A stretch of 9,211 nucleotides of DNA from a virus (IMGVR_UViG_2609460356_000005:1-9211); one strand, 5' to 3'; positions 1-9,211 are shown, numbered from the stretch's first letter. Program-made: numbers and translations. Notes: generated from the sequence alone by a model not told the origin.

Positions 1-894
1 ATGGGGCTATTAGCAGACAAAACAAAATGGGTTCTTTTTTTGGCTTCCAGCAGTGAGCCGGAAGATCGGCATGTTTCTGATCTGGCCTTTGGGATTTACT
101 GCTTAGAAAATCGTGGAATTAATCCTGCTGATATTTTTATTTATATAGATGGAAACAACAGAGGAAATATACAAAAATTAATCTCAGTTGGCACTAACCA
201 TCAATATAATGTAAAAAGAAGCAGCGAATTTTTTTCGGATTGCGACGATAATACCCATGATAATATAGTTATATTTATAACGGGTCATGGAAGTATGCAT
301 GGATTGGACGCCCTCCCACCAATACCGCCCTATAGGTTACTTAATCGTATAAAAACAACGCCAGATTTAGATAGAGCGATAGTATATATGGGGCAGTGTT
401 ATGCTGGAATTTTCAATTACTTAGCAGCCGGAAGGCAGCGAAGGTCTGACGGAAAGATAGATCCTGAGGCGATTTTCATGGGGGCAACCAATCTCCATGA
501 AAGCATTAGCTCTTCTACCACAGAAAATATAAACGGCAACGATTACACTTGGGTCGCCAATCTTTTTTTGTTAAATACATTCAAGTGGATATCCAATCCT
601 TTCGATGTTGATGGCGATGGAAAAAACACGGTAATCGACTCATACAAATATGCCGGAACATCTTCAAATGTAATGAACATGAGTATAAAGATGAACTCCT
701 TTGTTCAATCAGTAATGCTTCACTCCCAATGGAGCACTGCAAAAACGGATTATGAATTGGATGATCAGAATCAAACAAAACTATTAATATACAGAGCATA
801 TGAGCAACAATATTTATCTGCTCTGAATATAAATTTTGTCCATCAAGAATGCTGGATTTTAAACTCCGTTCCGGCTCAGCAAGTCGAATATTAA
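1..894 (+). CDS. Clan CD cysteine peptidase, legumain (C13)/caspase-like, 297 aa, with C-terminal region carrying a calcium-loop-like DxDxDG motif
   Basis: ORF 1-894 (+). Ordered His-then-Cys dyad in the sequence context typical of clan CD peptidases: hydrophobic strand KWVLFLASSS, then IVIFITGHGS (His96, nt 286-288) and AIVYMGQCYAG (Cys133, nt 397-399). DVDGDGKNTVID (aa 202-213, nt 604-639) resembles a dockerin/EF-hand-type Ca-binding loop. AT-rich, unlike the adjacent phage genes. The window starts exactly on the ATG, so the true N-terminus cannot be verified. Confidence 0.5.
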   Translation: MGLLADKTKWVLFLASSSEPEDRHVSDLAFGIYCLENRGINPADIFIYIDGNNRGNIQKLISVGTNHQYNVKRSSEFFSDCDDNTHDNIVIFITGHGSMHGLDALPPIPPYRLLNRIKTTPDLDRAIVYMGQCYAGIFNYLAAGRQRRSDGKIDPEAIFMGATNLHESISSSTTENINGNDYTWVANLFLLNTFKWISNPFDVDGDGKNTVIDSYKYAGTSSNVMNMSIKMNSFVQSVMLHSQWSTAKTDYELDDQNQTKLLIYRAYEQQYLSALNINFVHQECWILNSVPAQQVEY

Positions 895-930
895 AGAATT
901 ACAGTGACAATTTGAAAAGTTCAAGCACTA

Positions 931-2592
931 TCAAAGCCCATTGAAATCAGCTAGCCGTTGTTTGTGACTGTCACTCATATCAAATGCAAAATCCTCGTGC
1001 TCAGCCTGGAAGGTGCCAAACGCCATTAACGCAGACACAGCCGGATCTATCTTGTTGGAGGATTTCTTTTTGTTGGGCTTGATGTTGGCATTGGCGTCGG
1101 ACTCCATCACCACGTTACCAATCGCCCAGGCCAGAACCGGATCACCGCGATGGCGCACTACCCTGCGGTTAACAAACACTTCAAAGGATTTCGCTACCGG
1201 ACTGAACCTGAGATAGGTTTGCGGGAATGGCTCAACATCAAGGCCCGCACCCTGTAGCTGGGTGCGCAGATGCGTAGCGTTCCACGTATCAAAGCCCACC
1301 AGCCGAATATTGAAGGTTTCAGCATCGCGCAGGATATCGTCACGAATGCGGTCATAGTCGATACAGTCGCCGGGTGTGGTGCGTATCCAGCCCGTTTTTA
1401 CCCACTGGCGATAGATGGCGCGGTTTTTGTTGGCGACGTTAAGCAGTTGCGCTTCCGGTAGATAGTGGCGGGTCAGAAGCCGGATCTCCCTGTCAAACGG
1501 GAAAGCGTAACTCACGCTGGTGATATCGCTGGTTGAGGACAGGTCAAACCCGGCATAACACTCCATTCCGACCAGCTCTTCTTCGTTATAGTCGAGTGCA
1601 CAGGCATCCCACGCGCCAGCCCCCATCCACGGCGTGGAGCCCTGACACCAGATATTGAAACGTTTGGTGAGCATTTCCACCCATTGCGACGGTACCCCCC
1701 GCGCTTTCTGGATGGTGGATTCCAGCTTCGCTGCGTCAACAGACACATGCAGGTTAGGGTTGGCCTTAATCCACATTTCCGGCTGCTCAACCTCAATTTC
1801 GTCGTCCAGCTCGTATATCAGGACAAACAGAGAATCGTTGCTCTCTTCCCCTGCCAGAATCTGGCAGCAGTAGTCATAATGCTGCTTACAGGCCGAGACT
1901 ACGTTACTCCCGGCGGTAGTGATGGCGAACAAAATTGCCTCAGGACGGGCGCCCATACCCAGCTCAAGCGCGGAATAAACGCCGTTATCCGGGTGAAGGT
2001 GGTACTCATCGACAATCGCCAGGCTGGGGTTAGTCCCTTCAATGGTGGCCGCTTTTGCCGCCAGCGGCTTTAACAGGCTGTTGCTCTTCGGGAAAATGAC
2101 CTTGTGTGCCTGAATACTGACGCGCTTTTTCAGCGGTTTTGACAGCAGGCACATCTGGCGGGCATCGTCGAACACGATTCGGGCCTGATCCCGGCTTACC
2201 GCCGCCGTGTAGATATCCTGCTGGCCCTTCTCCATCACCAGAAACCAGTTAGCCAGCATGGCGGCCACGGTGGATTTGGCATTCTTGCGCGGCACCTCAA
2301 TAAAGGCGCTGCTATACTTCCGGCGGCCTGACTCCCTGACTTTAAAGCCCAGCAGGTTAGCAAAGGCGAACTGCTGCCACGGCTCCAGCTCGATAGACTG
2401 CCCGCGCAACGGGCCTTTGACGTGAGGACAGAGCCGCGAGAACGCAATAAACCGCTCTACGGTCGCCGTATCGAACACATAACGGGGGTCATTCAGGTCT
2501 GAAAAGTACCTTTCCACGGCCTGTTTTACGCGCTTACAGGCCGGAATTTCGCCCGTTTTTATCGCGTTTGCGTACTCATTCCAGACGGTCAA
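931..2592 (-). CDS. terL: Phage terminase large subunit (TerL)
   Basis: 553-aa ORF. Deviant Walker A-like EVPRKNAKST and Walker B-like LAIVDEYH in the N-terminal ATPase half, with a C-terminal nuclease-type half. Lies directly downstream of a small terminase ORF that it overlaps by 17 nt (2576-2592). Overall resemblance to HK97-type large terminases is from memory. Confidence 0.9.
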   Translation of the reverse strand: MTVWNEYANAIKTGEIPACKRVKQAVERYFSDLNDPRYVFDTATVERFIAFSRLCPHVKGPLRGQSIELEPWQQFAFANLLGFKVRESGRRKYSSAFIEVPRKNAKSTVAAMLANWFLVMEKGQQDIYTAAVSRDQARIVFDDARQMCLLSKPLKKRVSIQAHKVIFPKSNSLLKPLAAKAATIEGTNPSLAIVDEYHLHPDNGVYSALELGMGARPEAILFAITTAGSNVVSACKQHYDYCCQILAGEESNDSLFVLIYELDDEIEVEQPEMWIKANPNLHVSVDAAKLESTIQKARGVPSQWVEMLTKRFNIWCQGSTPWMGAGAWDACALDYNEEELVGMECYAGFDLSSTSDITSVSYAFPFDREIRLLTRHYLPEAQLLNVANKNRAIYRQWVKTGWIRTTPGDCIDYDRIRDDILRDAETFNIRLVGFDTWNATHLRTQLQGAGLDVEPFPQTYLRFSPVAKSFEVFVNRRVVRHRGDPVLAWAIGNVVMESDANANIKPNKKKSSNKIDPAVSALMAFGTFQAEHEDFAFDMSDSHKQRLADFNGL

Positions 2593-2932
2593 GCTCGTCT
2601 TCCTCCTCCGTTTCCACCGGGTTCCGGCGGCGGCTTACCGGATCAAAGCCCAGCAGCGACGACATTTTAATCATGATTTTTTCAGCATCGGCCTTTGCGC
2701 TCAGCGCCGGATTTCGGCTCTCACCGCCCTGGCTGTTAACAATGCTGAACCCACGGCTGGCAAGGTCTTCCACGGCTTTGCGGTACATCGAATAGTTGAC
2801 GCAAAAAAGCTCAAGGTTGTTCCAGTCGGCGGGAGTCAAATCCCCGCGCTCCGCCAGTTGCTTCGCCTTCGCTTTCCACTGCTGCGCAGCTAACTCATCA
2901 AGGTAAGCTGGCGGTTTGGGTGGTCTTGCCAT
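2576..2932 (-). CDS. terS: Phage terminase small subunit (P27-family-like TerS), 118 aa
   Basis: Start placed at the internal ATG (2930-2932) giving MARPPKPPAYLDELAAQQWKAKAKQLAERGDLT..., a typical N-terminus for P27-type small terminases. Positioned between HNH and terL and overlapping terL. The longer ORF-track version (to 3100) adds a Gly-rich N-terminal extension that looks non-coding. Confidence 0.75.
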   Translation of the reverse strand: MARPPKPPAYLDELAAQQWKAKAKQLAERGDLTPADWNNLELFCVNYSMYRKAVEDLASRGFSIVNSQGGESRNPALSAKADAEKIMIKMSSLLGFDPVSRRRNPVETEEEDELDRLE

Positions 2933-3062
2933 AAAAATTTCTCGTTTCCGTCGCGTTTTATTTTCAAAAAAATCACCGTGCGTAAAAATTTGAGGGGGCG
3001 GGTGGTTCCTCGCTGAGAGGGGTTTGTCCTGAAAACCTCCCCCACCCCGTCCATTCGGCCTG

Positions 3063-3215
3063 TCAGCGGTTGCGAAAGCATTCCATAAGCTCCCGGTCAC
3101 GCTGGCTCATGCGCTTTGCTACGGGCTTCTTATGCGCTCTCTGTCTGGCTGGTTGCCATGACTCACGCTGCTTTATCAGCCCACTAATCAGCCGCTGCTG
3201 TTCCTGCTCAGTCAT
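3063..3215 (-). CDS. Small hypothetical protein (50 aa) between HNH and terS
   Basis: Not in the ORF track (below size cut-off). Hand translation from ATG at 3213-3215 gives MTEQEQQRLISGLIKQRESWQPARQRAHKKPVAKRMSQRDRELMECFRNR with stop at 3063-3065. A GAGG Shine-Dalgarno sits 6 nt upstream of the ATG, and the start overlaps the HNH stop in an ATGACTGA arrangement. Basic, helical-looking peptide of unknown function. Confidence 0.35.
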   Translation of the reverse strand: MTEQEQQRLISGLIKQRESWQPARQRAHKKPVAKRMSQRDRELMECFRNR

Positions 3216-3651
3216 TGTTTGCCTCATAGATCCAGTCGGTGCGATGACGTGCTGCTTCTTCCTGCTCGCGGAACTTACCGGCTTTACGCTGCTGCTTCGT
3301 CACCGGGTCTGTTGTGGTTGTCTTCCGTCCATGACAGGCAGCGCATAACGACTGGTGATTACTGGCGGGCCAGAACAGCACATCAGCTTCACCCTCGATA
3401 GGGATGATGTGATCGACGATAGTTGCCGATGCATAGACGCCAGCCTTGAGACAATGGACACACAGCGGATTAGCTTTTAGAAAATGACGACGGTATTCGC
3501 CCCAGCGGTTGGAGTAACCACGCTCTGTTCGCGTACCTCTTCGGCTGTCGCTTTGTCGGCGGGCATCCCGCTTATGCTCGTCACACTTGCCAGACTTCAC
3601 CCGTTTATTACATCCCGGCTCATTGCACCGGCGTAGTGGTTGCCACGGCAT
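3208..3651 (-). CDS. Phage HNH endonuclease (packaging-associated)
   Basis: 147-aa ORF with paired Cys motifs (CNEPGC...C, CVHC, CAAC) and an HNH core DHIIP...NHQSLCAACHGRKT. Located immediately upstream of terS/terL, the arrangement seen in HNH-dependent cos-packaging phages. Confidence 0.85.
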   Translation of the reverse strand: MPWQPLRRCNEPGCNKRVKSGKCDEHKRDARRQSDSRRGTRTERGYSNRWGEYRRHFLKANPLCVHCLKAGVYASATIVDHIIPIEGEADVLFWPASNHQSLCAACHGRKTTTTDPVTKQQRKAGKFREQEEAARHRTDWIYEANND

Positions 3652-3944
3652 CAGTACACCCCCACATCACGATAGACAGACCACAACGCAGAGACAGCCA
3701 TCGGTATCTCTTTGGCGTCGGTATCACCAATCATCGTGCGGTACTCGTACAGCTGAGATACGTACATCAGACAGCCAATCTTGATAGCTGGCGTAAACTC
3801 CAGCCCGTTATCAAACCGCTTGCCGATATGCTTCTGGCAAACCTCCAGCGCCGCATCGATGTACGCCTGTATCAACGTATCTTCGTAATCATCATCAATA
3901 CGGCAATGCAGCTTTGCTTCATCCAGGGTGATTTCTGCTGTCAT
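3651..3944 (-). CDS. gp6-like head-tail connector (adaptor) protein
   Basis: 97-aa ORF. The N-terminus MTAEITLDEAKLHCRIDDDYEDTLIQAYIDAALEVCQ matches the characteristic start of gp6/SPP1 gp15-type head-tail connector proteins (from memory). Its start overlaps the head-closure stop by 4 nt, and its stop overlaps the HNH start. Confidence 0.75.
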   Translation of the reverse strand: MTAEITLDEAKLHCRIDDDYEDTLIQAYIDAALEVCQKHIGKRFDNGLEFTPAIKIGCLMYVSQLYEYRTMIGDTDAKEIPMAVSALWSVYRDVGVY

Positions 3945-4279
3945 TTTTCCGTTCCTGTCTTGCAGAGAATTTCCAGCCGAGTACCTTCCGAATCAGGAAT
4001 AGGAGGCCCGATAATATTGAGAGTGCTGCCAGCAAACGGGCCAGTAAGCACTTTCAGACGGTTGGCTGCGGTAATATCACGGCGGAAACGCACCCAAACG
4101 CGGATCGTCGCTTCGGCAACCTCGGCACCTGACGCCATTAACTCTCGGCCACTGATCCCCTTAACCTCAGCCCATATGGTTTCCCCGTCTTCCCAGACCT
4201 GAACAACCTGACCGGACGGCTCCCTGTGGGTAGTGAATACCCGAATAGTGTCGCGGCTTCTCAGCCCCCCGGCTCTCAT
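3941..4279 (-). CDS. Phage head closure / head-tail joining protein
   Basis: 112-aa ORF. The pattern ...IRVFTTHREPSGQVVQVWEDGETIWAEVKGISGRELMASGAEVAEATIRVWVRFRRDI... resembles head-closure (SPP1 gp16-like) proteins. Translationally coupled to portal (4-nt overlap at 4276-4279). Confidence 0.7.
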   Translation of the reverse strand: MRAGGLRSRDTIRVFTTHREPSGQVVQVWEDGETIWAEVKGISGRELMASGAEVAEATIRVWVRFRRDITAANRLKVLTGPFAGSTLNIIGPPIPDSEGTRLEILCKTGTEK

Positions 4280-5511
4280 GCGTCACCTTCCTTGCCGTCT
4301 TTGCTGATCTTCACTTCCTGCTTCCATGCCTGGCTGAATTCGTCACCACCTTTACGCGGCGGCATCCCCTCGCGCTCACGGGCTTCGTTCGGGTTCATGA
4401 TCCCGTTCTTAATGCCTCGCTCATAAGTGGCGTAACGCTCGGTAGGTGTGGCACGGAGAAGGTCAGCAGAGTCAAACTCCACCTGATAGCGGGTTCCTGG
4501 AACCGGAGAGGCCACCAGCAAAGCAGATTTGATTTGTTGCTCGAAGTTCGCCAGCCACGGGCGCATGGTCATGGTGAGAAAGGCGCGGCTCGCTTCGCTG
4601 AAATTGCTGTAGGTGCTGTTGCTGTATTCCTGCAGGAAGATGGGCGACACATTGAACATGCGGGCAATGTCTTCAATGGAGAACCGGCGCGACGCCAGCC
4701 ATTCGGCATCCTGATTGCTCATGCCAAGCTGCTTGTAGTCCATGCCACCTTCAAGGATCGGCGTTTTCCCGGCATTTCTGGCACCTTTGTAGCGCTCCAG
4801 TGCGTCCAGAGCCTGCTTACCCTTCACGCTGTCGAGCCATTCAGCAGTAGTGACGACGCCCGCCGCCATCATGCCATCTTTCATAATGCTGGCACCGTGG
4901 CGCTGTTGGGCCAGACCTAACCCCAGCGCCTCACGGCACGTAGTAATAGGCGAACGCCCCAGAAAGCCATCATCGGTGGAGTAACGCAGGTGCAGAATCT
5001 CTTCCTGTAGATAGGTGCGCACAGCCCCGGTAAACGGCTCTGTAACGGTGTATTTGTACTTATGCTGGCCGATACGCTCAGGAACAACCGCCCCCGGCGC
5101 ATACGGGTGCAGGGATTGCGGCTGGCCGTCGCGGCCCCACTGGATCACCGCATAGGCGTTACCGTTCAGCAGACAATGGCGCATCATCGTGCGTTTAAAC
5201 TGATAAGGCGTCTGGCAGTCGTTCGGCTGCTCGTTCAGGAGAAAATCCACCGGGTGATTGCTCAGCCATTCTCGCGCCTCACGCCCGTTATCGTTGCGCA
5301 CGCGGTAGAGGTAGCAGGGCATTGTTGCCACCGCCTCACTGATAACTGACACGGCGTTCATGACCGCCGGCAGAGATTCCGCAGTACCCGCAGACACATA
5401 TTCGCCTGATCCGGTATTTGGAATCCCTGCCATCGCCAGAAACTCATCAATGGTCATGCTGCGCTGCTCAGAGGGTTCAGACTTACGGCCAAACGGCCAG
5501 ATATTCCACAT
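4276..5511 (-). CDS. Phage portal protein (HK97-family-like)
   Basis: 411-aa ORF of the size and composition of HK97-type portals, ending in a charged C-terminal tail (NPNEAREREGMPPRKGGDEF...). Sits between prohead protease and head-closure genes. An alternative start at Met19 (MTIDEFLAMAG) is possible. Confidence 0.85.
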   Translation of the reverse strand: MWNIWPFGRKSEPSEQRSMTIDEFLAMAGIPNTGSGEYVSAGTAESLPAVMNAVSVISEAVATMPCYLYRVRNDNGREAREWLSNHPVDFLLNEQPNDCQTPYQFKRTMMRHCLLNGNAYAVIQWGRDGQPQSLHPYAPGAVVPERIGQHKYKYTVTEPFTGAVRTYLQEEILHLRYSTDDGFLGRSPITTCREALGLGLAQQRHGASIMKDGMMAAGVVTTAEWLDSVKGKQALDALERYKGARNAGKTPILEGGMDYKQLGMSNQDAEWLASRRFSIEDIARMFNVSPIFLQEYSNSTYSNFSEASRAFLTMTMRPWLANFEQQIKSALLVASPVPGTRYQVEFDSADLLRATPTERYATYERGIKNGIMNPNEAREREGMPPRKGGDEFSQAWKQEVKISKDGKEGDA

Positions 5512-5512
5512 A

Positions 5513-6073
5513 TCAGAGCCCCGCTAATTCAGCCCAGCGGCGGCGGTTATCACCAGCCCGGCGCAGTTCAGGATATTGGGAGAAAAGCGAACGGTGCGCG
5601 ATTTCCACGCCAGACTCAGGATAAGCAGGCATAGAGGTAACGGTAATCTCCCGCAGTTCGGCAGCGGTAACAGTGCGCAGGTATGGAGACTGAGCAATAT
5701 CCCACGCCTCTTTCAGCGCCCGGAAACCAAAGCTCATGCCGGAGATATCCCCGCGCTCCACCAGCTCCAGCACATCGTTGCCAAGCTGGGTATTCGGCGG
5801 GGTCAGCTCGAAGCGCAGCCCGGTATCATCTTCTGACAGCACCAGCGTGCCGGATTTAGTGCGGCCCAGCAGCTGGGTATAGTTATGCTCGTACAGCGCA
5901 CGCACATCGCTACCGGATGCCAGGCTGTCTTTAAACGCTCCCGGCGCAAACTGCTCGCGGAACTCGTCCCAGATAATTTCAGAGAGACTGTTCCAGCGCA
6001 CGGCATAGCCCACCAGCTTTTTGTTGCTGGCGCTCACTTCGGAGGTACGGATTTCAAAATCGATTGTTTTCAT
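5513..6073 (-). CDS. Prohead (head maturation) protease, HK97 family
   Basis: 186-aa ORF immediately 5' of portal (stop 5513-5515, portal ATG 5509-5511). Contains an ISGMSFGF-type motif typical of HK97-family prohead proteases (from memory). GGAG Shine-Dalgarno 7 nt upstream of the ATG. Confidence 0.85.
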   Translation of the reverse strand: MKTIDFEIRTSEVSASNKKLVGYAVRWNSLSEIIWDEFREQFAPGAFKDSLASGSDVRALYEHNYTQLLGRTKSGTLVLSEDDTGLRFELTPPNTQLGNDVLELVERGDISGMSFGFRALKEAWDIAQSPYLRTVTAAELREITVTSMPAYPESGVEIAHRSLFSQYPELRRAGDNRRRWAELAGL

Positions 6074-6093
6074 TACTGGACTCCACAGAGGGC

Positions 6094-6116
6094 AAAAAGG
6101 GGCCGCAGCCCCTTAA
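6094..6116 (-). terminator. Putative intrinsic terminator/attenuator between capsid and protease genes
   Basis: Minus-strand reading AAGGGGC-TGCG-GCCCCTT followed by TTTGCCC: a GC-rich 5-7 bp stem with a 4-nt loop and a short T-run. Lies in the 51-nt gap between capsid stop (6125) and protease start (6073). Confidence 0.4.
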
Positions 6117-6124
6117 ACGTCAAA

Positions 6125-7291
6125 TCAGGAACCGGAGCCTGAAAGCTCAAGCACCTTGATGGCGTTGGAGTCCACCACACCACCGCCCAGGTATTTATCG
6201 GTATGCACCTTGTAGAAACCCGGCTCGGTGATGTTGTCAGGGCGGGTACGCACGCCAGTGGTGTGATCCACGATGAAATAGCCGCGCTTGAAGTCGCCTA
6301 CCGCGAGGAATGCTTTACCTGCCTCCGCATCCGGCATGGTTTCCAGATACTGAACAGGACGGCCCAGCAGCGTATCGGGAGAACCGGCAACCAGACGATC
6401 GCGCCAGATGTAATCCCCGTTGCCGTTTTTCAGCTTTTGCAGTTTGGCTGCGGTGTTGGAGTTCATCACCCATACGGCGTTTTTGCGGTATTTGGCTTTC
6501 AGCTTATACAGCAGGTCGATCAGGCCATCAGAGGAAACGTCAGCCGCTTCCATCTTCTCCAGCGTACCGAACGGACGGGTTTTGTCGGCAGTGGCCGCGC
6601 GAGGGTAAGACAGGAAGCCTTTGGATTTTTTATCACCGTCGCCGTTCACAAAGTCGCTTTCTTCGGTCGCGGTGAAGGTGTCGGCAATTTCAGAAGACAG
6701 CCAGCCCAAAATATCCACCTCGGAGAAGTCGAGAATCTCCTGAGTGGTTTTCGGGTAGGCGTAGATCGGGTTGAGTTTGATATCAACGCGCTCCATCTTC
6801 GGCGTACTGGTTTCGGTACGTGCCTCACCTTCGGTACCACGATTAACGGTAGTGCCGCCCACAGATACCAGCTTCTGGTATTCGTTGGTTTTGGTGGTCT
6901 TCACCGTTGCGATGGAGCGCATCACGCTATCATCCTGCAACTGGCGCATAATCTCTTTGTCCAGCTCAGGGATAACGGTATAGCCGCCATCAGCCTGCAC
7001 CAGCGTGGAGAGAGAACGGGTATCACCTGTCATGATGTAGTGGCGCAGCTCGTCGTTGCTTACTGGCTCACCTTCAACGGAAGTACCAGGCAGATTGCGC
7101 TGATCGTCGGCGACGGCTTCTAGACGGGTGATTTCAACTTCAAGCGCATCAGCCTGGGCGCGGAGTTCATCGAACTTTTTGCCCTCTTCTTCGTTCAGGC
7201 TGCGCTTTTCGGTGTCGGCTTTGTCCAGCATGGAACGCATCTGTGTTTTGAGTGCGGCTTTCTGCTGGCGTAATTCGAGTAGTTTCTTCAT
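6125..7291 (-). CDS. Major capsid protein, HK97 fold, with N-terminal delta/scaffold domain
   Basis: 388-aa ORF. The N-terminal ~100 aa is a charged coiled-coil-like region (MKKLLELRQQKAALKTQMRSMLDKADTEKRSLNEEEGKKFDELRAQADALEVEITRLEA) typical of the HK97 delta domain. The remainder has the size and character of HK97-type capsid proteins. Confidence 0.9.
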   Translation of the reverse strand: MKKLLELRQQKAALKTQMRSMLDKADTEKRSLNEEEGKKFDELRAQADALEVEITRLEAVADDQRNLPGTSVEGEPVSNDELRHYIMTGDTRSLSTLVQADGGYTVIPELDKEIMRQLQDDSVMRSIATVKTTKTNEYQKLVSVGGTTVNRGTEGEARTETSTPKMERVDIKLNPIYAYPKTTQEILDFSEVDILGWLSSEIADTFTATEESDFVNGDGDKKSKGFLSYPRAATADKTRPFGTLEKMEAADVSSDGLIDLLYKLKAKYRKNAVWVMNSNTAAKLQKLKNGNGDYIWRDRLVAGSPDTLLGRPVQYLETMPDAEAGKAFLAVGDFKRGYFIVDHTTGVRTRPDNITEPGFYKVHTDKYLGGGVVDSNAIKVLELSGSGS

Positions 7292-7448
7292 GGAGTGGTT
7301 TCCGTAACAATTAATGTTAAGACGTGAAACCAGCGCTTAGGGGGGAGGCCGTTAAATCTTTTTCTGCCTCTCGCAGGCTGTACTCGCTACAGCTTGACTT
7401 AACGGCCAGTGGCGGCTCACGTCTGAGTGCCACTTCTCAACATATACA

Positions 7449-7485
7449 TGAAAATAATAAAGAAAAGCCCGAATTTAATCGGGCT
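7449..7485 (-). terminator. Rho-independent terminator downstream of the AT-rich two-gene operon
   Basis: Minus strand reads AGCCCGA-TTAAAT-TCGGGCT followed by TTTCTTTATTATTTTCA (7-bp stem, 6-nt loop, U-rich tail). Located 39 nt after the stop of the 281-aa ORF (7524). Confidence 0.5.
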
Positions 7486-7523
7486 AAGCACTAATAAGCG
7501 CGAGGACAAATAATTTACACTTG

Positions 7524-8369
7524 TTAGTCGTAATACCCTTCCCACCAGCTTGAAGTATCTGCATGGAATGCCCCTTCATCACACTCTAAACTTTCAGGGG
7601 CATACACTGGACTTCTCACCTCGCAGGTAAATGGGAATGTCTCACTACCTACAGCACCAATATCATTTCGCAAATCGGAATTAGATCCCCATTGCAACCC
7701 GACACCTACAGAACCAATAACAGAGAAAACTATTTCAGTATCATTTATTTCTACTATTTTAACATCATCAACATACACTTCATCAACCGAACTGTGTGTC
7801 GATAAAATATCAATTGATGTTACAGTTTCAGTTATCGAACTATGAATCGCGGCCTCACTAACGGCTTCATATAGCTTATTAATTATCTCCTTATGACACT
7901 CATCAAGCTTGGTGAAAAGAGCGCTGATACAGCCTTCAACCTCTCCGACCATTTGGAGGCCAGCATCATCATTAATTGGGAAAATATTTTCGCTGATGTG
8001 AGTAAATTTATTTAATGAATTGAATGCGTCACGTAACCTCGGAAAAACCCCAGCAACATTTACATCAAGCTCTTCCCTGACATATTCATCACTTAACCCA
8101 CCCTGGATTATATATTTGTAAGAGTCTTTTCTTGAGACCTGCTCTCTTTCATTCAAGCCAGGGAACCAATCACATGACTGAACATTTTTATCAGGTGCCA
8201 TGCGTTTTATGACGTGTAAAAATAGTTCTCTAAGTGCATAGGCATAATTACTGAAGCGAAGTTGATTATTTACATCTAAAAGATTGTAGATCGCAGAGTC
8301 AAACAATTGCCGTTCAAACTCTCCTTCCAGATGTTTATTGATCATCTGTAAATTATCGTTAGTTCGCAT
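7524..8369 (-). CDS. Hypothetical protein, 281 aa, AT-rich cargo gene (second gene of two-gene operon)
   Basis: ORF with ATG at 8367-8369 preceded by a GAGGAAG Shine-Dalgarno; 23-bp gap from the upstream small ORF. No family recognised. Contains an R-x4-H motif (RELFLH, aa 47-52) that could be, but need not be, a HEPN-type signature. AT-rich composition contrasts with the capsid module. Confidence 0.6.
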   Translation of the reverse strand: MRTNDNLQMINKHLEGEFERQLFDSAIYNLLDVNNQLRFSNYAYALRELFLHVIKRMAPDKNVQSCDWFPGLNEREQVSRKDSYKYIIQGGLSDEYVREELDVNVAGVFPRLRDAFNSLNKFTHISENIFPINDDAGLQMVGEVEGCISALFTKLDECHKEIINKLYEAVSEAAIHSSITETVTSIDILSTHSSVDEVYVDDVKIVEINDTEIVFSVIGSVGVGLQWGSNSDLRNDIGAVGSETFPFTCEVRSPVYAPESLECDEGAFHADTSSWWEGYYD

Positions 8370-8392
8370 TAACTCTTCCTCTGTAGACTTTA

Positions 8393-8737
8393 TTATCTTT
8401 CGACATTAAGCCAGTGAGACACAGCGTTTCCGCTGGATATTCTCGCATCATAAATGATTGACCTCAAATCTCCATTTGAACGTGCTGGATTGGACAGTTG
8501 TGCAGCAACATCATTGAGAAGTTCAATGTAAGAACGCAGTTCATCTGGTAAGTCAGCATATGGTGCATCCATAGCGTCAATGTAATCCTGATTTTCCCTT
8601 CGCTCAGCCAGAACAAAAGCCCTTAAAGCCAGATAGTCTGTCAGCGTTACTCCAGTTTTCTCATTCAGTTCTTCGATTGCACTATGCAGAAATTGGATAC
8701 CCTGAAACTTGTCTTTATGATTACCTAAAATTTCCAT
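8393..8737 (-). CDS. Hypothetical small protein, 114 aa (first gene of two-gene operon)
   Basis: ORF track starts at a TTG (8749). The ATG at 8735-8737 (MEILGNHKDKF...) with GAGG 6 nt upstream is preferred. Acidic, helical-looking protein with no recognised family. Stop TAA at 8393-8395. Confidence 0.55.
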   Translation of the reverse strand: MEILGNHKDKFQGIQFLHSAIEELNEKTGVTLTDYLALRAFVLAERRENQDYIDAMDAPYADLPDELRSYIELLNDVAAQLSNPARSNGDLRSIIYDARISSGNAVSHWLNVER

Positions 8738-8757
8738 CTGTAGCCTCAAAAAATAGA

Positions 8758-8785
8758 AATATACGTTTAAGTGTTCACCTGTTCA
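8758..8785 (-). promoter_or_regulatory. Putative sigma70-type promoter of the two-gene operon
   Basis: Minus strand: -35-like TGAACA (plus 8780-8785), 16-nt spacer, -10-like TATATT (plus 8758-8763), about 20 nt upstream of the GAGG/ATG of the small ORF. The -35 overlaps the tandem AGGTGAAC repeats. Prediction by eye only. Confidence 0.3.
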
Positions 8786-8878
8786 CCTTTGCATTTTTCC
8801 TATTTAAATTCATTGGGTTACAGGGTGAAGACTATAATTTTAAGTATTCACTAGTATTCACCCTAACCCTTCACCTTT
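8773..8878. repeat. Cluster of short direct and inverted GTTCACC-type repeats in the operon upstream region
   Basis: Exact tandem GTTCACCT x2 (8773-8780, 8781-8788). Exact AGTATTCAC x2 with 10-bp periodicity (8843-8851, 8853-8861). TTCACCTTT at 8782-8790 and 8870-8878. Inverted copy GGGTGAAG at 8823-8830. Confidence 0.55.
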
Positions 8879-8880
8879 TA

Positions 8881-9211
8881 GGTGATGCTGCCAACTTACT
8901 GATTTAGTGTATGATGGTGTTTTTGAGGTGCTCCAGTGGCTTCTGTTTCTATCAGCTGTCCCTCCTGTTCAGCTACTGACGGGGTGGTGCGTAATGGCAA
9001 AAGCACCGCCGGACATCAGCGCTATCTCTGCTCTCACTGCCGTAAAACATGGCAACTGCAGTTCACTTACACCGCTTCTCAACCCGGTACGCACCAGAAA
9101 ATCATTGATATGGCCATGAATGGCGTTGGATGCCGGGCAACAGCCCGCATTATGGGCGTTGGCCTCAACACGATTTTACGTCACTTAAAAAACTCAGGCC
9201 GCAGTCGGTAA
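8881..9211 (+). mobile_element. IS1 insertion sequence, left end and insA (element continues beyond window)
   Basis: Sequence from 8881 (GGTGATGCTGCCAACTTACTGATTTAGTGTATGATGGTG...) matches the IS1 left terminal inverted repeat and leader as remembered. It is followed by the InsA reading frame. A full IS1 is about 768 bp, so it would extend to about 9648. Confidence 0.9.
8936..9211 (+). CDS. insA: IS1 InsA (transposition regulator / N-terminal part of InsAB' transposase)
   Basis: 91-aa [94 protein letters not shown], recognised as IS1 InsA (zinc-finger CPSC...CSHC plus helix-turn-helix). Stop TAA at 9209-9211. Confidence 0.9.

Follow-up and report, generated by a model that had tools for sequence, protein, structure and literature searches.

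What kind of element carries a full set of phage head and packaging genes in an order foreign to HK97-like phages, with no tail gene in view? The question is raised by positions 931-7291 of a 9,211-nucleotide stretch of viral DNA (IMGVR_UViG_2609460356_000005:1-9211; the whole stretch is called the window in the following). An earlier note, made from the sequence alone, had suggested that this block belongs to a satellite resembling the phage-inducible chromosomal islands of the capsid-forming type (cf-PICIs) rather than to a prophage. Our analysis indicates, with a probability of roughly 93%, that 931-7291 is the complete packaging operon of a cf-PICI integrated at the 3' end of fis in Escherichia coli, acting by the mechanism proposed from its homology to the prototype EcCIEDL933. 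The cf-PICIs are a family already defined experimentally and catalogued at scale; the element is an ordinary member and its identity is not new. No contradiction to membership in this family was found in the evidence gathered, and the remaining doubt concerns the integrity of the copy in the window rather than its identity.

Gene content and order of the packaging operon

The core of the window (roughly 1000-7300) has a GC content of ~0.52-0.58 and is enclosed by low-GC flanks of ~0.36-0.44. It consists of nine minus-strand open reading frames (ORFs), packed tightly or overlapping and all of full length, eight of which were assigned by Pfam (E values from 1e-7 to 1e-96). Read from 7291 to 931, they encode the capsid protein, an S78 protease, the portal, a head-completion protein, a gp6-like connector, an HNH endonuclease, a 54-aa protein and the small and large terminase subunits TerS and TerL (coordinates in Table 1). 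This is the order that the earlier note had read from capsid to TerL, and ORF calls together with Pfam and PHROG place every gene where it had been put. It is likewise the order of proteobacterial cf-PICIs (capsid-protease-portal-connectors, then hnh-terS-terL), and according to ORF calls and Pfam all eight genes that define a cf-PICI are intact within the window. Pfam scans detected no tail or lysis genes among the proteins of the window; Rfam at gathering thresholds returned no RNA family and ARAGORN no tRNA in the same stretch.

The canonical HK97-like arrangement that had been taken as the yardstick, with HNH at the far end of the genome, is indeed seen in Shigella phage SfIV, one of the true phages with the most similar capsid (35.5%). 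In SfIV, the genes for TerS, TerL, portal, protease, capsid, adaptor and closure are followed by tail, lysogeny and lysis genes, and HNH is located at the far right end next to cos, whereas HNH directly precedes TerS in the window. Compared to SfIV, gene order is inverted within the portal-protease-capsid block and likewise within the adaptor-closure pair, with no change of strand; the order in the window is no simple circular permutation of the phage order.

Comparison with 50,697 phage records gave a concordant picture. Close matches to capsid or TerL came only from three satellite-sized records, i.e. vB_KppS-Ant (16.5 kb) and the Pasteurella "phages" Pmp7 (10.7 kb) and Pmp8 (15.3 kb), from a 3.8-kb Salmonella fragment and from one 106-kb Klebsiella phage record. 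For both proteins, all other phage records reach at most ~43% identity over partial alignments and at most ~36% over full length; TerL is at most 35% identical to true phages. The prototype EcCIEDL933 (Alqurainy et al., 10.1101/2022.09.08.507074), which we located in the chromosome of E. coli O157:H7 EDL933, carries these nine genes, likewise on a single strand and without change of order; the small ORF between hnh and terS and the hairpin behind the capsid gene are among the shared features. Amino acid identities to the window are 65% for capsid, 62% for protease, 80% for portal, 53% for adaptor, 63% for connector, 62% for HNH, 50% for the small ORF and 81% each for TerS and TerL. The resemblance to cf-PICIs in gene set and layout, put forward in the earlier note, is thus borne out as collinearity with the reference island at 50-81% identity. 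Packaging proteins of cf-PICIs were reported to be 50-90% similar to those of EcCIEDL933 and <40% to phage proteins (10.1101/2022.09.08.507074), and the identities measured here (50-81% and <=36%, respectively) fall inside these ranges.

Of 5426 complete E. coli genomes, 538 contain the packaging module, in every case on the chromosome. This share of ~10% agrees with the 13% of Enterobacteriaceae genomes in which SatelliteFinder recorded cf-PICIs (PMC10085698). When the window was compared with its relatives, ratios of non-synonymous to synonymous substitution rates (dN/dS) were 0.01-0.08 for capsid, portal, TerS and TerL, indicating that the module is under strong purifying selection. The source of the window is a draft contig ending in an insertion sequence (IS), for which reason one might suspect the unusual gene order to be an artefact of assembly, a possibility already named in the earlier note. 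However, closed chromosomes (ABW_S38, EDL933 and hundreds of others) show this order as well, and so do independent assemblies that are 100% identical, which refutes this explanation and reduces its chance to a negligible one.

The complete island and the state of the present copy

Over its full length, the window matches with 100% identity the terminal part of a draft contig from E. coli (L020, JNNC01000089.1, assembly GCA_000700585.1; L numbers designate the records used for comparison). This contig stops inside IS1, 14 nt past the window, and its flank on the chromosome side shows 100% identity to E. coli ABW_S38. Window positions 1-8880 recur with 100% identity in a twin island that lacks IS1 (L015). 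In the direction of transcription, the twin starts behind the chromosomal gene yhdJ with genes for an integrase, a 216-aa protein, AlpA, proteins of 230 and 286 aa and small ORFs. These are followed by a D5_N-type primase, a 114-aa ORF, a nuclease, the nine-gene operon and, on the opposite strand, genes for proteins of 297 and 100 aa, after which the chromosome resumes with fis. The island spans 16,582 bp between the copies of a 16-bp direct repeat, ATTAGTTCATGCCGTA, resembling attachment (att) sites; for a cf-PICI, ~10-18 kb between such sites is expected. One copy forms the 3' end of fis, at the stop codon; the att site lies at the fis 3' end, outside the window, and not at a tRNA gene. Of the features that the earlier note had proposed to look for, integrase, alpA, primase and att-like repeats are all present in this 16.6-kb twin, while the window's own contig ends in IS1 before reaching the three genes. 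No tail or lysis genes are found in the twin between the att-like repeats, and no tail or lysis PHROG category was assigned in the left half of the island. A second exact direct repeat of 20 bp, TGTATAAACATTTGTATAAA, was observed just inside both ends of the island (L015:2676-2695 and L015:19026-19045), and its copies may represent arm-type binding sites of the integrase.

Integrase, AlpA and primase are all present also in L001, L014, L016, L017 and L019. Ten further islands encoding the identical capsid protein occupy several chromosomal sites; all are ~15-17 kb in size and differ in primase type and cargo, and none of the ten contains a tail module or lysis genes. These data bear on the idea that 931-7291 is what remains of an ordinary HK97-like prophage after deletion of its tail, lysis and replication genes. 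Membership of all its proteins in phage head and packaging families, and the adjoining IS, would suit such a history. It is contradicted, however, by a gene order unlike that of HK97-type phages, by the low identity to true phages (<=36%) and by the compact 15-17-kb int-alpA-pri architecture, which recurs, intact, at several attachment sites. Strong purifying selection and the identical twin, which is bounded by att repeats and has no space for lost modules, also argue against a prophage remnant, and we regard it as very improbable.

With a cf-PICI as the preferred identity, the state of the copy in the window has to be considered. All relatives lacking IS1 cease to match the window at 8880. 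In the twin, this position falls into a 273-bp spacer after the primase gene (L015:9361-9633), which harbors 11 copies of the motif GGTGAA/TTCACC (0.19 expected), arranged as two opposed sets of iterons flanking an AT-rich centre. IS1 at 8881 lies in this AT-rich centre, and the window retains half of the array. The cluster tracks the primase: 10-11 copies are present after the D5-type gene in five other islands and none after two other primase types. Origins of Staphylococcus aureus pathogenicity islands (SaPIs) and PICIs are cognate iteron origins placed next to pri, and the co-occurrence with primase type is the pattern expected of such an origin. The cluster is therefore probably the replication origin of the island, which makes the present-day mobility of the copy in the window uncertain.

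Several points weigh against a functional island at this locus. The contig ends in IS1, and integrase, alpA and primase are seen in identical relatives and not in cis. IS1 resides inside the putative origin and could abolish replication; by splitting it, the insertion may have left this copy unable to replicate. Even a simple insertion adds ~0.77 kb to a 16.6-kb genome that needs a small head, and this copy would then measure ~17.3 kb.

The copy may accordingly be dead or immobilised, either because IS1 split the origin or because an IS1-mediated rearrangement removed the int-alpA-pri half and left a stranded remnant behind. The insertion exactly in the AT-rich centre between the twin's two iteron sets and the end of the contig within IS1 are both in keeping with this. 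The junction between island and IS1 was found in 0 of 5426 complete E. coli genomes and in none of the genomes covered by an exact search of one genome per species; its absence from complete E. coli genomes marks it as a rare, recent event. Other relatives are also decayed or hit by an IS: in L018 (7958-12055) the primase is truncated and the capsid region has been joined to the portal gene by a deletion, and in L009 (8651-9631) an IS (DDE_Tnp_1) is found where the primase region should be. On the other hand, none of the nine packaging ORFs is disrupted, and each is identical to its counterpart in the IS1-free twin, so that any inactivation must be very recent. In addition, a simple insertion normally makes a draft contig stop within the IS, and such an end implies no deletion; the origin that would have been split is itself putative. 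We consider loss of mobility a serious possibility, to which we give somewhat less than even odds.

Table 1. Features of the window, with strand and the evidence for each assignment (packaging operon in the direction of transcription, then the remaining features).
Feature	Coordinates	Strand	Evidence and remarks
Conserved leader 5' of capsid gene	7292-7465	-	homology limit
Major capsid protein, 388 aa	6125-7291	-	Pfam Phage_capsid 8e-69 over residues 102-382; first gene of operon
GC hairpin and T-run directly 3' of capsid stop	6094-6114	-	AAGGGGC-TGCG-GCCCCTT then TTT; 7-bp stem in fold
Prohead serine protease S78, 186 aa	5513-6073	-	Pfam Peptidase_S78 7e-48
Portal, 411 aa	4276-5511	-	Pfam Phage_portal 2e-96; portal homologues in PDB
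Head-completion protein, 112 aa	3941-4279	-	Pfam Phage_HCP 2e-20
gp6-like head-tail connector, 97 aa	3651-3944	-	Pfam Phage_connect_1 1e-11
HNH endonuclease, 147 aa	3208-3651	-	Pfam HNH 7.5e-7
Small conserved ORF, 54 aa (50 aa from ATG at 3215)	3063-3227	-	phrog_3173 5e-17, family of unassigned function
Non-coding spacer between small ORF and terS, 130 bp	2933-3062	-	conserved blocks
TerS, P27 family, 118 aa	2576-2932	-	Pfam Terminase_4 9e-25; terL start overlapped by 17 nt
TerL, 553 aa	931-2592	-	Pfam TerL_ATPase 6e-29, TerL_nuclease 3e-52; last gene of operon
Cargo protein at island 3' end, 297 aa	1-894	+	predicted caspase/legumain-like (clan CD) fold
Terminator-like hairpin closing upstream cargo cassette	7466-7485	-	terminator scan; fold -14.4 kcal/mol, z -3.9, 0/200 shuffles as stable
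Nuclease, Argonaute-associated type, 281 aa	7524-8369	-	Pfam pP_pnuc_1 5e-32, pP_pnuc_2 1e-36; PADLOC Aga_Nuclease 1e-84
Partner ORF of nuclease, 114 aa (118 aa from TTG 8749)	8393-8737	-	phrog_7232 5e-14; 114 aa called in relatives
Half iteron cluster GGTGAA/TTCACC	8758-8880	.	5 motif copies at 8774-8875
IS1 left end: inverted repeat and insA	8881-9211	+	IS1 terminal sequence; Pfam Zn_ribbon_InsA 1e-21, HTH_Tnp_IS1 5e-31

Head assembly, control sites and tail attachment

Helper induction, formation of own small T=4 capsids, packaging of island DNA only and dependence on a helper for tails alone are known for EcCIEDL933, EcCIGN02175 and KpCIDSM30104 (10.1101/2022.09.08.507074; 10.1101/2025.02.11.637232). 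From experiments on the prototype and these two relatives we infer, by homology, how the island described here may work. A helper phage would trigger AlpA-dependent induction, whereupon the island would excise and replicate from the origin linked to its primase, and the packaging operon would be transcribed as a single unit. The HK97-fold capsid protein, its N-terminal domain being cleaved by the S78 protease, would assemble on the portal to a T=4 head of ~47 nm, sized for ~15-16 kb. TerS, TerL and HNH would recognise and cut cos, probably in the spacer 5' of terS, and package island DNA exclusively. The head-completion (adaptor) protein and the gp6-like connector would then close the head and form a dock for a foreign tail, so that the tail-less heads could be completed with tails of the helper or of an unrelated phage.

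The capsid protein has the HK97 fold and, at its N-terminus, a coiled-coil (delta/scaffold-like) region of ~100 aa. Its best match among solved structures is 9gyi ("Major head protein", 385 aa, E 5e-161), the length of which agrees with the capsid gene of EcCIEDL933; the T=4 capsid structure was described by He et al. (10.1101/2025.02.11.637232). The exact capsid protein of the window is recorded in 1267 blocks of the assembly collection. The next closest solved capsid after that of the cf-PICI is from the gene transfer agent (GTA) of Rhodobacter capsulatus (E about 1e-50), and its portal is among the portal matches, too. These resemblances would also be expected of a domesticated, GTA-like head module that packages host DNA. 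However, integrase, AlpA, primase and att repeats accompany the operon, which occurs at variable chromosomal sites, as befits a mobile island, and HNH, TerS and TerL constitute a cos-type packaging set. As the prototype EcCIEDL933 moreover packages itself exclusively (10.1101/2022.09.08.507074), a GTA-like module is scarcely credible here.

Several non-coding sites of the cf-PICI operon are conserved. The terminator-like hairpin that the earlier note had placed right behind the capsid gene (6114-6094) is real. All relatives share it at this position; even in EcCIEDL933 it is found there, amid intergenic sequence that is otherwise unrelated. The stem GGGGC/GCCCC is retained throughout and the loop varies; the stem being invariant, no covariation is seen in it. 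A consensus terminator scan did not flag the hairpin and the z-score of the 54-nt fold is just -1.6; it was confirmed by eye, folding and conservation. Probably, the hairpin serves to terminate transcription in part or to stabilise the mRNA, and so adjusts how much capsid is made relative to the downstream proteins. In this way, the capsid protein, of which a couple of hundred copies are required per T=4 head, would be produced in larger amounts than portal, protease and terminase. On the other side of the capsid gene, nucleotide homology of the window to most islands with identical capsid ends at 7470, and the cargo further upstream differs. The conserved leader would accordingly hold the promoter and control region of the operon; no promoter-like site was called in it (7292-7465).

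The spacer upstream of terS contains the blocks GACGGGGTGGGGG.GTTTTCAGGACAAACCC and CCTCAAATTTTTA.GCACGG, which are common to the window and EcCIEDL933, the flanking ORF being just 50% identical. Its location adjoining HNH and terS matches the layout of HK97-type phages, and HNH is regarded as a packaging cofactor of terminase in HK97-type cos systems (discussion of 10.1101/2022.09.08.507074). Position and conservation suggest that the spacer probably holds the cos or terminase recognition site of the island; its fold is no stabler than that of shuffled sequence (z +0.3). The linear record of vB_KppS-Ant starts and stops within the same spacer. Its ends were rejected as mapped cohesive ends, since ~70 bp of window sequence are missing between them. 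As to terS itself, the mechanically called ORF (2576-3100, 174 aa) is over-extended, and the true start is the ATG at 2932, giving the 118 aa annotated in every relative. The small ORF on the other side of the spacer has no Pfam match. It is 50% identical to a 60-aa ORF in the same place in EcCIEDL933, with a conserved C-terminus (RDRE..ECFRNR), and shows dN/dS values of 0.2-0.5. A possible counterpart in the cf-PICI paper is "hypothetical gene 1792".

The head-completion protein is apparently the "head-tail adaptor" of the cf-PICI papers. Its gene is the most variable of the module, with 42% identity to vB_KppS-Ant and 53% to EcCIEDL933, compared to 87-98% and 63-81%, respectively, for its neighbours, and nucleotide homology of the window to L005 and L007 is broken at 3926-4269, i.e. 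in the adaptor region. Adaptor and connector genes were described as a variable region inside the module that sets tail specificity (10.1101/2025.02.11.637232), and the divergence observed here fits this role. The head-completion gene thus likely decides which phage tail attaches, and at just 53% identity a tail preference different from that of EcCIEDL933 is likely. Recombination inside the operon became apparent when 931-7291 was compared with L001, L010 and L021. Relative to ABW_S38, synonymous divergence (dS) is 0.13-0.22 from capsid to portal while the part from head closure to TerL is nearly identical; relative to L010, it is the other way round. Amino acid identities of 42-61% beside neighbours at 92-98% suggest that the genes for adaptor, HNH and small ORF were exchanged as a block.

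Cargo and relation to known satellites and phages

Accessory genes of PICIs are located in two regions, at the 3' end and beside pri (PMC11364771). Both low-GC cassettes of the island sit in these hot spots and bracket the packaging operon, in agreement with the flanks of cargo or IS perceived in the earlier note, IS1 starting at 8881. The 281-aa protein of the upstream cassette contains both "pPIWI-associating nuclease" domains and has no sequence match in the PDB; no prokaryotic Argonaute (pAgo) gene was found in any full island copy compared. The 297-aa protein at the other end is paired, in full islands, with a 100-aa ORF that lies outside the window (L001:14675-14977). It has no match in Pfam, NCBIfam or PDB sequences, and PADLOC gave just a marginal Cas10 match (E 0.02). 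Residues H96 and C133 are invariant across 30 homologues of this widespread proteobacterial family. In the AlphaFold (AF2) model (pLDDT 76), His96 and Cys133 each follow right after a beta-strand. Foldseek ranks metacaspase, caspase-9, GPI transamidase and legumains highest; the TM-scores, at 0.3-0.38, are weak. The protein is therefore predicted to be a caspase/legumain-like peptidase, which is a lead and not a finding. Cassettes of a 93-100-aa and a ~296-aa protein, with the small ORF upstream, are also present in a Serratia island and beside genes for SIR2- and PLD-domain proteins in Pseudomonas.

Neither cassette matches a complete described defence system. It is conceivable, if rather unlikely, that the two represent uncharacterised anti-phage systems, i.e. 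a pair with a His/Cys dyad and a nuclease of the type associated with long-B pAgos that acts with the 114-aa protein and no Argonaute, carried by a copy that IS1 has immobilised. As an observation on sister cf-PICIs with identical or near-identical capsid, tail-like cargo is found right after terL (L008:16373-19693; L021, i.e. vB_KppS-Ant:2036-4333; L003:16371-16985; L005:16371-16970). It encodes a tape-measure-like protein of 765-1106 aa or a ~200-aa protein with a weak match to Lambda_tail_I. A lone tail-type gene in a tail-less satellite could have a function as decoy, in defence or in tail adaptation.

The value of these results is one of annotation and not of discovery: a block labelled "phage" by genome pipelines is re-labelled as a satellite that pirates tails. 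The correct label matters for prophage counts, for estimates of the potential for horizontal transfer and for the search for defence cargo. The cf-PICIs are frequent and cross genera by borrowing tails. While the cf-PICI itself is known, novelty, if any, may reside in the cargo and the state of this copy. Beyond the label, the locus offers IS1 in a presumed origin as one way in which such islands could decay, recombination within the operon for packaging, with the adaptor gene at its centre, and two cassettes, located at known hot spots, that are candidates for defence.

How does the island compare with the systems already described? With HK97-type cos phages (HK97, HK106, SfIV) it shares the head-assembly families, HNH-assisted cos packaging, the HK97 fold and an N-terminal domain removed by the protease. 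In contrast, these phages are ~40 kb in size and possess tail, lysis and lysogeny modules, and their identity to the window is <=36%; a gene order differing from SfIV and a 16.6-kb twin lacking tail and lysis genes set the island apart from an HK97-like prophage. Classical Gram-negative PICIs (EcCICFT073 type) share its left half, i.e. int, alpA and pri-rep with the origin beside it. Their cargo hot spots, too, are found at the 3' end and near pri, and they likewise depend on a helper phage. However, they use capsid proteins and TerL of the helper and are devoid of portal, connector genes and terL. Portal, connectors and terL are "forbidden" components in the PICI model of SatelliteFinder (PMC10085698), and the window contains the portal gene, both connector genes and terL, which places it outside the classical PICIs.

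The closest relation is to other cf-PICIs. EcCIEDL933 follows the same island plan of int, regulator, primase, cargo, packaging operon and again cargo, and neither island has tail or lysis genes. The two differ in attachment site (fis 3' end versus the roxA-phoQ interval), in replication protein (D5_N type with GGTGAA iterons versus DUF927 type) and in cargo genes, and IS1 in the window's copy is a further difference. Another close relative is vB_KppS-Ant (LR881103.1), considered here together with the E. coli/Klebsiella cf-PICIs of the EcCIGN02175/KpCIDSM30104 type; it has the same primase type and iteron cluster as the window's island. Its capsid is 98%, its TerL 92% and its portal and protease are 96% identical to the window. 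In contrast, identity is only 42% for the adaptor, 61% for HNH and 43% for the small ORF, pointing to mosaic recombination, and a tape-measure-like gene follows terL where the window has the peptidase cassette. The record of vB_KppS-Ant is labelled "induced prophage", which suggests that relatives of the island get packaged. Overall, the regions that vary match those reported in 10.1101/2025.02.11.637232: the cargo on either side of the operon, the gene behind alpA and the genes for adaptor and connector.

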